In this document: positions 40,449-43,400 of the stretch, piece after piece
Position numbering within the stretch: the stretch's first letter is position 1
Layout: every line of letters starts with the position of its first letter
Source: a virus
Lineage: Duplodnaviria; Heunggongvirae; Uroviricota; Caudoviricetes
Direction: 5' to 3' (one strand)
Length of the DNA stretch: 43,825 bases
IMG/VR virus record: IMGVR_UViG_2711768001_000012
Notes under the pieces: model-generated
What the model was told of the DNA's origin: nothing
Database searches by the model: none
What the model saw: only the letters and a program-made list of their open reading frames with translations
Translations under genes and position numbers: made by a program

Positions 40449-43400
40449 ACAGTGAGGGGAATACCAACATCTCTGGTGTCACGGTGGTGTTCCGGGCAGG
40501 TGAGCAGGAGCAGTCACCGCCGGAGGGGTTTGAATCCTCCGGCTCCGAGACGGTGCTGGGTACGGAAGTGAAATATGACACGCCGATCACCCGGACCATC
40601 ACGTCGGCAAACATCGACCGTCTGCGCTTTACCTTCGGTGTACAGGCACTGGTGGAAACCACCTCAAAGGGAGACAGGAATCCGTCGGAAGTCCGCCTGC
40701 TGGTTCAGATACAGCGTAACGGTGGCTGGGTGACGGAAAAAGACATCACCATTAAGGGCAAAACCACCTCGCAGTATCTGGTCTCGGTGGTGGTGGATAA
40801 CCTGCCTCCGCGCCCGTTCAGTATCCGGATGCGCAGGATGACACCGGACAGCACCACAGACCAGCTGCAGAACAAAACGCTCTGGTCGTCATACACCGAA
40901 ATCATCGATGTGAAACAGTGCTACCCGAACACTGCACTGGTCGGCGTACAGGTGGACTCGGAGCAGTTCGGCAGCCAGCAGGTGAGTCGTAATTATCATC
41001 TTCGCGGGCGCATTCTGCAGGTGCCGTCGAACTATAACCCGCAGACGCGACAATACAGCGGTATCTGGGACGGAACGTTAAAACCAGCATACAGCAACAA
41101 CATGGCCTGGTGTCTGTGGGATATGCTGACCCACCCGCGCTACGGCATGGGGAAACGTCTTGGTGCGGCGGATGTGGACAAATGGGCGCTGTATGCCGGT
41201 ATGGAACGGGCAGACGCTGACGTTCGTGCAGGACCGACCGTCGGATAAGGTGTGGACCTATAACCGCAGTAATGTGGTGATGCCGGATGATGGCGCGCCG
41301 TTCCGCTACAGCTTCAGCGCCCTGAAAGACCGCCATAATGCCGTTGAGGTGAACTGGATTGACCCGGATAACGGCTGGGAGACGGCGACAGAGCTTGTGG
41401 AGGACACGCNNNNNNNNNNNNNNNNNNNNNNNNNNNNNNNNNNNNNNNNNNNNNNNNNNNNNNNNNNNNNNNNNNNNNNNNNNNNNNNNNNNNNNNNNNN
41501 NNNNNNNNNNNNNNNNNNNNNNNNNNNNNNNNNNNNNNNNNNNNNNNNNNNNNNNNNNNNNNNNNNNNNNNNNNNNNNNNNNNNNNNNNNNNNNNNNNNN
41601 NNNNNNNCATTGCCCGTTACGGTCGTAACGTCACGAAGATGGATGCTTTTGGCTGTACCAGCCGGGGGCAGGCACACCGCGCCGGGCTGTGGCTGATTAA
41701 AACAGAACTGCTGGAAACGCAGACCGTGGACTTCAGCGTGGGCGCAGAAGGGCTTCGCCATGTGCCGGGCGATGTCATTGAAATCTGTGATGATGACTAT
41801 GCGGGTATCAGCATCGGCGGGCGCGTGCTGGCGGTAAACAGCCAGACCCGGACGCTGACGCTCGACCGTGAAATCACGNNNNNNNNNNNNNNNNNNNNNN
41901 NNNNNNNNNNNNNNNNNNNNNNNNNNNNNNNNNNNNNNNNNNNNNNNNNNNNNNNNNNNNNNNNNNNNNNNNNNNNNNNNNNNNNNNNNNNNNNNNNNNN
42001 NNNNNNNNNNNNNNNNNNNNNNNNNNNNNNNNNNNNNNNNNNNNNNNNNNNNNNNNNNNNNNNNNNNNNNNNNNNNNNNNNNNNNNNNNNNNNNNNNNNN
42101 NNNNNNNNNNNNNNNNNNNNCGTGGATAACGGGGCGCACTTTGACGGCGACCAGAGCGGCACGGTGAATGGTGTCACGCCGCCAGCGGTGCAGCACCTGA
42201 CTGCCGAAGTCACCGCAGACAGCGGGGAATATCAGGTGCTGGCGCGCTGGGACACGCCGAAGGTGGTGAAGGGGGTGAGCTTTATGCTTCGCCTGACCGT
42301 GGCAGCGGATGACGGCAGTGAGCGGCTGGTCAGCACGGCCCGGACGACGGAAACCACATACCGCTTCACGCAACTGGCGCTGGGACGGTACACGCTGACA
42401 GTCCGGGCGGTAAATGCCTGGGGACAGCAGGGCGATCCGGCGTCGGTATCGTTCAGGATTGCCGCACCGGTAGCACCGTCGCGGATTGAGCTGACGCCGG
42501 GCTATTTTCAGATAACTGCCACGCCGCATCTTGCGGTTTATGATCCGACGGTACAGTTTGAGTTCTGGTTCTCGGAAACGCGGATTACCGATATCAGGCA
42601 GGTTGAAACCACAGCCCGCTACCTTGGCGCGGGGCTGTACTGGATAGCCGCCAGTATCAATATCAAACCGGGCCATGATTATTACTTTTATATCCGCAGT
42701 GTGAACACCGTTGGCAAATCGGCATTCGTGGAGGCCGTCGGTCGGGCGAGCGATGATGCGGAAGGTTACCTGGATTTTTTCAAAGGCAAGATAACCGAAT
42801 CCCATCTCGGTAAAGAGCTGCTGGAAAAAGTTGATCTGACGGAGGATAACGCCAGCAGACTGGATGAGTTTTCGAAAGAGTGGAAGGACGCCAACGATAA
42901 GTGGAATGCCATGTGGGGCGTCAAAATTGAGCAGACCAAAGACGGCAAACATTATGTCGCGGGTATTGGCCTCAGCATGGAGGACACGGAGGAAGGCAAG
43001 CTGAGCCAGTTTCTGGTTGCCGCCAATCGTATCGCGTTTATTGACCCGGCAAACGGGAATGAAACGCCGATGTTTGTGGCGCAGGGCAACCAGANNNNNN
43101 NNNNNNNNNNNNNNNNNNNNNNNNNNNNNNNNNNNNNNNNNNNNNNNNNNNNNNNNNNNNNNNNNNNNNNNNNNNNNNNNNNNNNNNNNNNNNNNNNNNN
43201 NNNNNNNNNNNNNNNNNNNNNNNNNNNNNNNNNNNNNNNNNNNNNNNNNNNNNNNNNNNNNNNNNNNNNNNNNNNNNNNNNNNNNNNNNNNNNNNNNNNN
43301 NNNNNNNNNNNNNNNNNNNNNNNNNNNNNNNNNNNNNNNNNNNNNNNNNNNNNNNNNNNNNNNNNNNNNNNNNNNNNNNNNNNNNNNNNNNNNNNNNNNN

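Follow-up and report, generated by a model that had tools for sequence, protein, structure and literature searches.

A 140-bp gap in the tail-tip gene J of a Rac-family prophage is probably a false gap closure in a draft assembly

The DNA considered here is IMG/VR virus record IMGVR_UViG_2711768001_000012, a stretch of 43,825 nucleotides (nt) assigned to the Caudoviricetes (the whole stretch, at its full length, is called the window), and it holds a Rac-family prophage whose gene J, encoding the tail-tip or host-specificity protein, is interrupted by a frame break at which 140 base pairs (bp) are missing. A preliminary description, made from the letters of the window, had read the break as a deletion that inactivates J and leaves the prophage tail-defective, with the reservation that it might be an assembly error. 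We find that this reservation is the more likely answer: the junction has the marks of a 10-nt join of the kind made by the program GapFiller, and a finished copy of the same prophage has an intact J. The frame break is present in the letters of the window, but the gap is most probably a false closure in a draft assembly and not a mutation in the bacterium; the organism itself most likely has no such break.

The junction in J

In alignments with PhiR55_1 and with the finished chromosome CP022457.1 (L004), J of the window has exactly 140 bp fewer than intact J, made up of one copy of the 10-nt direct repeat GCGCTGTATG and a further 130 bp. In intact J the two copies have different neighbours, G and T on the left and T and C on the right, which limits the repeat to exactly 10 nt. 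Since 140 is not a multiple of three, J is shifted out of frame; it is read with position mod 3 = 2 up to ...DKWALY, enters a tail of 17 out-of-frame residues and is picked up again with position mod 3 = 0. The features of J are as follows.

40449-41195, forward strand: J piece 1 (tail-tip / host-specificity protein), approximately codons 54-302, frame mod 3 = 2; 99.6% identical to L004 15778-16524; Pfam FNIII-A_GpJ, E = 1e-42
41186-41195, forward strand: junction with a single GCGCTGTATG copy; intact J has two copies 140 bp apart
41195-41245, forward strand: out-of-frame tail of 17 residues, followed by a premature TAA stop at 41246-41248; the same tail is found in protein P0001 of the sister draft L024
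41196-41409, forward strand: J piece 2, frame mod 3 = 0 (CMPVWNGQ...); 99.6% identical to L004 16665-16878
41608-41878, forward strand: J piece 3; 100% identical to L004 16883-17153
42121-43094, forward strand: J piece 4; holds a tight paralog-like cluster of variants at 42892, 42901 and 42910
43464-43825, forward strand: J piece 5; 100% identical to L004 18421-18782; the window ends about 249 nt before the J stop

The preliminary description had placed the frame break correctly, and alignment with intact J confirms both the roughly 45 codons that it listed as missing (VIGQYCDQSV...DFCSAMR) and its estimate of a loss of about 140 bp at a short repeat. When 961 bp of J were used as a query, the matching spans were 1,101-1,102 bp long and came in two pieces in 30 of the 30 phage matches listed and in 40 of the 40 listed for E. 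coli. Intact J contains only four direct-repeat pairs of at least 10 nt within 400 nt, and the chance that a random deletion would place its junction on a 10-nt repeat is about 4^-10, so the position of the junction is not accidental. The arrangement is the one that a slippage deletion leaves, with two short direct repeats in the intact parent, one copy in the window and the interval gone.

That the gene is a J gene is clear from the Pfam match (PF24801, FNIII-A_GpJ, E = 1e-42) and from its DNA, which is 96-99% identical to annotated J genes. Intact relatives encode proteins of 1,131-1,165 amino acids (aa), but the window has no single open reading frame (ORF) of about 1,130-1,165 aa, the frame being shifted at 41195, probably through an assembly artefact. 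At 41193 there is an ATG from which a C-terminal J ORF could start anew; in L024 this ORF has been gene-called as 789 aa. A programmed frameshift or a natural short isoform of J was considered and discarded: 140 bp are absent, there is no slippery site, and the segment is kept in 114 of 114 natural J loci.

The window as a scaffolded draft

Six runs of N interrupt the window. When they are compared with near-identical relatives (at least 99.6%), all six prove to be of the wrong length, with errors in gap size from -271 to +333 nt.

10229-10269: scaffold gap, 41 N for 312 bp
19525-19786: scaffold gap, 262 N for 258 bp
40100-40448: scaffold gap, 349 N for 360 bp; conceals the end of gene I and the J start codon
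41410-41607: scaffold gap, 198 N for 4 bp (AGGC)
41879-42120: scaffold gap, 242 N for 257 bp
43095-43463: scaffold gap, 369 N for 36 bp

This comparison of lengths rules out that the N runs are length-preserving masks, as the word 'unmasked' in the preliminary description would suggest; they behave like scaffold gaps of estimated size. Because they are mis-sized, the window is a scaffolded short-read draft, and because the sizes are estimates, coordinates and reading frames across the gaps are unreliable. J itself lies in five pieces (747+214, 271, 974 and at least 362 bp), its ORF interrupted by four of these gaps. The differences in offset between J pieces (+54, -15 and +333) are all multiples of three, a pattern that we judged to be coincidence (chance about 0.1).

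Apart from the 140-bp gap, J of the window departs from that of the finished genome at only seven positions, four of them no more than 30 nt from the edge of a gap and three in the tight paralog-like cluster of piece 4. Differences from the finished genome that are clustered or adjacent to gaps, in J and just upstream of it, stand at 39568 and 39583; at 40452, 40474 and 40477; at 41405; and at 42892, 42901 and 42910. Some of these variants agree with other J alleles, and the set as a whole suggests bleed-through of paralogous tail genes and not point mutation.

Intact copies of J and searches for the junction

In the finished chromosome CP022457.1 the same prophage has an unbroken J of 1,137 aa, to which the J pieces of the window are 99.6-100% identical, and five sister drafts that are unbroken across J align to it in one piece. 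The junction is found in two mis-assembled Shigella sonnei drafts, the window and L024, and in no finished or contiguous assembly examined, so that the preliminary conclusion of a deletion making the prophage tail-defective is unsupported and probably wrong.

The junction allele is marked by the string GGACAAATGGGCGCTGTATGCCGGTATGGAAC and the intact contexts by AAATGGGCGCTGTATGTCATCGGCCAG and TCGGCGATGCGCTGTATGCCGG. No match covering the junction was found in 5,426 complete E. coli genomes with a 44-mer that matches the deletion allele only, and the exact junction patterns were absent from the GTDB species representatives, IMG/VR and the JGI metagenomes; a control pattern for the intact context of copy 2 was found in at least 120 IMG/VR contigs. 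The 140-bp segment is missing from 0 of 114 natural J loci, and J genes that naturally lack it and stay in frame, which the preliminary description had named as grounds for giving up its reading, are therefore not among them. In 102 of the 114 the two GCGCTGTATG copies stand 140 nt apart; five further loci have the same distance with a degenerate copy 1, and distances of 137 and 139 occur once each.

Among proteins, a clean truncated J product of 319 aa, built on ten J N-termini including that of the S. sonnei paralog, is absent from about 15 billion sequences, and a homology search with a fragment of 265 aa, made against cluster representatives, found no other representative with the out-of-frame tail; an exact look-up of that fragment gave no match. 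The exact tape-measure protein of the window is widespread, being listed in 1,212 blocks of an assembly collection; the exact K protein is also very widely shared and is useless for narrowing the lineage.

A second carrier of the junction

A search with the out-of-frame tail peptide retrieved a singleton of 48 aa, annotated as 'host specificity protein [Shigella sonnei]' (P0001, CSH81015.1). Its contig, CWWC01000017.1 (L024, assembly GCA_001251315.1), is also from S. sonnei and is the only other record with the junction of the window. It is an assembly separate from the window, with real sequence where the window has N runs and a few positional differences.

L024 is mis-assembled about 100 nt upstream of the junction (region 9820-10100). 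Its left contig ends in ...AAAACCGG CATACAGCGC, where a single N directly adjoins the reverse complement of the 10-mer, and after the N comes an inverted copy, 158 nt long, of the sequence that follows the junction. This inverted copy passes into forward J at ACCGGCATACAGC, which repeats 13 nt of the junction region in inverted orientation. The two aberrant joins are 113 nt apart, and the stretch between them is bounded by differences between J paralogs, namely A/G at 41086 and a variable codon 11 nt after copy 1; because its ends fall at paralog-variable positions, it resembles a short inter-bubble node in a de Bruijn graph.

41083-41095, forward strand: upstream arm of a quasi-palindrome, ACCAGCATACAGC; 12 of 13 positions complementary to 41188-41200 (GCTGTATGCCGGT)

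The site of this quasi-palindrome is also the site of the fold-back join in L024, and the core of the direct repeat doubles as one of its arms. The upstream arm of the window is A-type and the pairing imperfect; among the 69 natural J loci where the arm was found, 65 have the G-type, which gives a perfect 13-mer.

Contig breaks and false joins in sister drafts

All intact J copies examined are identical for 11 nt past copy 1 of the repeat and for 14 nt ahead of copy 2. Between the copies the J paralogs vary, with TAC, AAT or CAT after GGCCAG, and a paralog of S. sonnei (P0047) differs further in the same interval. Sister contigs end at the site of the join: that of L008 stops 7 nt beyond copy 1 and is followed, past a gap of 250 N, by an overlapping, duplicated piece, and that of L011 stops inside copy 2. 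The region is scaffolded, rich in gaps and occupied by a multi-copy gene. A stall of the extension exactly at the end of copy 1 was also considered and finds only partial support: natural J genes have either T (82) or C (21) directly after copy 1, but no C-type paralog was found in S. sonnei.

A further draft of S. sonnei (L149, CXDK01000078.1, 1-11069) consists of three partial L-K-I-J modules strung together with single Ns between them. At 6649-6658, with no N at the join, J runs through CTGGTCGGCG back into gene L, partway along that gene. The scaffold also contains the two parent contexts, which diverge immediately on either side of CTGGTCGGCG, so the overlap is exactly 10 nt. This J-to-L join cannot be a deletion and is clearly non-biological. 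The protein P0125, recorded as 'host specificity protein', is a translation of the chimera. The overlaps at the N-free aberrant joins are accordingly 10 nt in the window, 10 and 13 nt in L024, and 10 nt in L149, and two of them, the 10-nt join of L149 and the 13-nt join of L024, are further joins of a non-biological kind.

Another S. sonnei scaffold, L005 (CXFX01000005.1, 13000-23234), is chimeric: past gene L it runs into the inverted tail genes of a different prophage, and it has single Ns at 14041, 15313, 15390, 16847 and 18373.

How the join could have arisen

Page et al. 2016 (PMC5320598) have described how the large public collection of S. sonnei drafts was assembled. Velvet is run with k at 66-90% of read length, SSPACE scaffolds the contigs and inserts N gaps, and GapFiller is then applied for 120 iterations with decreasing evidence thresholds. 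The authors caution that greedy tools can create false joins, and S. sonnei tops their table for mean contig count (405). Their supplementary table includes CXFX01, the assembly of L005, as output of the pipeline, and also S. sonnei prefixes adjacent to those of the other sister records. From these sister records we infer that the window was made by the same combination of Velvet, SSPACE and GapFiller.

GapFiller (PMC3446322) trims the edges of a gap by 10 nt and extends both by one nucleotide per step. It checks the extensions after every step and closes the gap once they overlap by 'at least 10 nucleotides', provided that the length inserted differs from the gap estimate by no more than 50 nt. 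Since extension goes base by base and closure comes at the first 10-nt match, false closures are predicted to have overlaps of exactly 10 nt; the overlap at the join in the window (10 nt) equals the minimum of the program.

The sequence of events that we propose is the following. The host genome would contain several J paralogs, identical around both GCGCTGTATG copies and differing in the 130 bp between them, and a short-read de Bruijn assembly would branch at these paralogs, so that contigs end beside the repeats. The scaffolder would then place two of these contig ends next to each other, with a poor estimate of the gap between them, and the gap closer, extending the ends base by base, would declare closure once 10 bases were shared. 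Copy 1 would in this way be merged with copy 2 and 140 bp of J dropped. The source reads would be expected to lack the junction.

Weighing of the alternatives

We favour a false closure of this kind because the junction is confined to drafts that are visibly mis-assembled at the same spot and is absent from every finished or contiguous copy, because both of its endpoints coincide with contig ends in sister drafts, because its overlap equals the software default, and because a sister draft has a non-biological join of exactly 10 nt. A false closure would lead one to expect all five of these facts, and under a real deletion each of them is a coincidence.

Several points weigh against this conclusion. 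The presence of the same junction in two different assemblies also fits a deletion inherited in a small clade of S. sonnei, and replication slippage classically leaves just such a deletion between 10-nt direct repeats. Under the size rule of GapFiller, a gap of about 130 bp could have been closed in this way only if its size had been set at least 80 bp too low; the gap-size errors found elsewhere in the scaffold allow an underestimate of that order, which for this gap would hold only by analogy. The last two bases of the left contig end in L024 (…CAGCGC before N) are hard to explain by the merging of overlaps alone, and the pipeline of the window is deduced from its sister records. Finally, finished Shigella genomes entered the DNA comparisons only as the fetched loci, which were reached through protein look-ups.

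The best of the alternatives is a real and recent deletion, by slippage or RecA-independent recombination between the 10-nt repeats, that took 140 bp out of J in a small sublineage of S. sonnei, and we regard it as unlikely. It accounts for the retention of exactly one repeat copy and for the occurrence of the junction in two non-identical assemblies, the remainder of J is undecayed, as fits a very recent event, and a deletion would itself add a branch to the assembly graph and could cause local fragmentation. It is nevertheless unsupported by any finished genome or contiguous assembly, and its expected 319-aa product is missing from the proteins searched. It also offers no reason why both carriers are mis-assembled at the exact spot, why sister contigs end at both of its endpoints, or why the overlap equals the default of the gap closer; a clearly non-biological join of exactly 10 nt is, besides, present in a sister draft. 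If it were true, J would be truncated at residue 302, and an otherwise complete and possibly inducible Rac-type prophage would give only non-infectious particles without a tail tip. The deletion would, moreover, have left no more than 92 nt between a 13-nt inverted repeat and its partner, and the new quasi-palindrome might drive further template-switch rearrangements like those in L024.

A deletion could also have occurred in a different, decayed J paralog of S. sonnei, the junction contig (marked by the string AAATGGGCGCTGTATGCCGGT) having been threaded into the Rac-type scaffold. There are indeed several J paralogs in S. sonnei (P0047 and the second piece of L008), and the drafts hold patches of paralog-type variants. 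We nonetheless consider this very improbable: truncated products built on the N-terminus of the S. sonnei paralog and on seven other J N-termini are not on record, both flanks of the junction are 99.6% identical to the Rac-type allele of the finished genome, and a paralog deleted in all S. sonnei would put the junction in many drafts, whereas P0001 is a singleton.

Template switching at the quasi-palindrome (ACC[A/G]GCATACAGC ... GCTGTATGCCGGT), in vivo or during library preparation, with uptake of the chimeras by the assembler, would suit L024, where both fold-back-type junctions lie on the same 13-nt core and the inverted repeat is perfect in G-type alleles, but it is the most improbable account of the window, as chimeras of this kind seldom occur and coverage cut-offs normally eliminate them, the 10-nt J-to-L join of L149 and the wrong-sized gaps are left unexplained, and the window has an imperfect A-type arm and no fold-back.

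The prophage and its neighbourhood

The preliminary description had placed the window among cryptic Rac elements. The first part of this stands, for the module of intR, recE, recT, racC and kilR is 100% identical over 6.5 kb to annotated loci, with Pfam matches to Exonuc_VIII, RecT and Phage_integrase in the early-left module. The second does not: the late region is complete, running from terminase, portal, a P22-type coat protein and a tape measure of 1,077 aa to M, L, K, I and J. In the closest relatives J is followed by lom, stf and tfaR, and ydaY and tfaR are annotated. The prophage of the window is thus a full-length element of the Rac family and not a cryptic remnant.

It is also a mosaic (29707-30939, 34683-37916), in which a P22-type coat protein and the 1,077-aa tape measure are combined with a lambda-type M-L-K-I-J tip and a Rac-type early region; the tape-measure protein H of lambda has 853 aa. 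In its closest relatives the right end of the prophage (stf, tfaR) adjoins the sitABCD genes for an iron/manganese transporter (L002, L003 25634-29083; L024 16956-20147). A protein of 333 aa from the early region (12664-13665) is identical in a different prophage located beside ompW, and a look-up of an early-region protein, tried as a route to a finished left half, was set aside after it retrieved a different prophage that shares only a module.

Other disturbed J genes were met in the databases. Three proteins of other E. coli records (P0002, P0003 and P0021) are J fragments that keep the 45-codon segment yet enter the same out-of-frame tail; their shift arises from small indels at or near copy 2 of the repeat, and one of them lies on a contig of 4.56 Mb. 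In strain NCTC9082 (L002, NZ_LR134080.1, 17618-21032), the closest E. coli relative, J is annotated as frameshifted and has 3,415 nt, as against 3,414 nt in the intact NCTC10444 copy; the extra base could be an indel error of long reads or a real frameshift. Many database proteins join the N-terminus of J to unrelated domains such as ParB, Ail/Lom, S49 peptidase and lysozyme (e.g. P0036, P0041-P0044, P0052 and P0117), a sign that chimeric joins or contig-end artefacts often fall in J across draft assemblies at large.

Significance

The biological importance of the junction is small, and were it real it would be one more private inactivating deletion of a prophage gene, of a well-known kind. 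Its use is as a warning. E. coli and Shigella have multiple copies of J and of the tail genes next to it, and older drafts that were scaffolded and gap-filled hold false 10-nt joins that mimic slippage deletions; calls of pseudogenes or of a 'defective prophage' from such drafts are not trustworthy without read support.

Comparison with known systems

The J gene resembles that of lambda (gpJ, TipJ family) in that its pieces have about 97% DNA identity to J of lambda-like phages and contain FNIII-A_GpJ, and its intact relatives have the full set of gpJ domains and the gene order M-L-K-I-J-lom-stf-tfa. It differs in that the ORF, as assembled, has a break at codon 302 and is divided by four scaffold gaps. 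With Rac of E. coli K-12, a cryptic remnant without most late genes, the prophage shares its type of intR, recE, recT, racC and kilR (100% to annotated Rac-type prophages), but it has in addition a terminase, a portal, a P22-type coat protein, a tape measure of 1,077 aa and a lambda-type tail tip.

Spontaneous deletions between short direct repeats, which Albertini et al. reportedly found in lacI in 1982 and attributed to slipped-strand mispairing, have the same outcome as the window, in which one 10-nt copy is kept and the interval is lost with the other copy; the junction of the window differs from them in having no support from any finished or contiguous assembly. The closer likeness is to a false closure by GapFiller at its default setting (n = 10): the overlap in the window is exactly 10 nt, the N gaps are mis-sized, the gene is multi-copy, and the sister assemblies linked to the pipeline, through which the provenance of the window would be traced, show joins of 10 and 13 nt.

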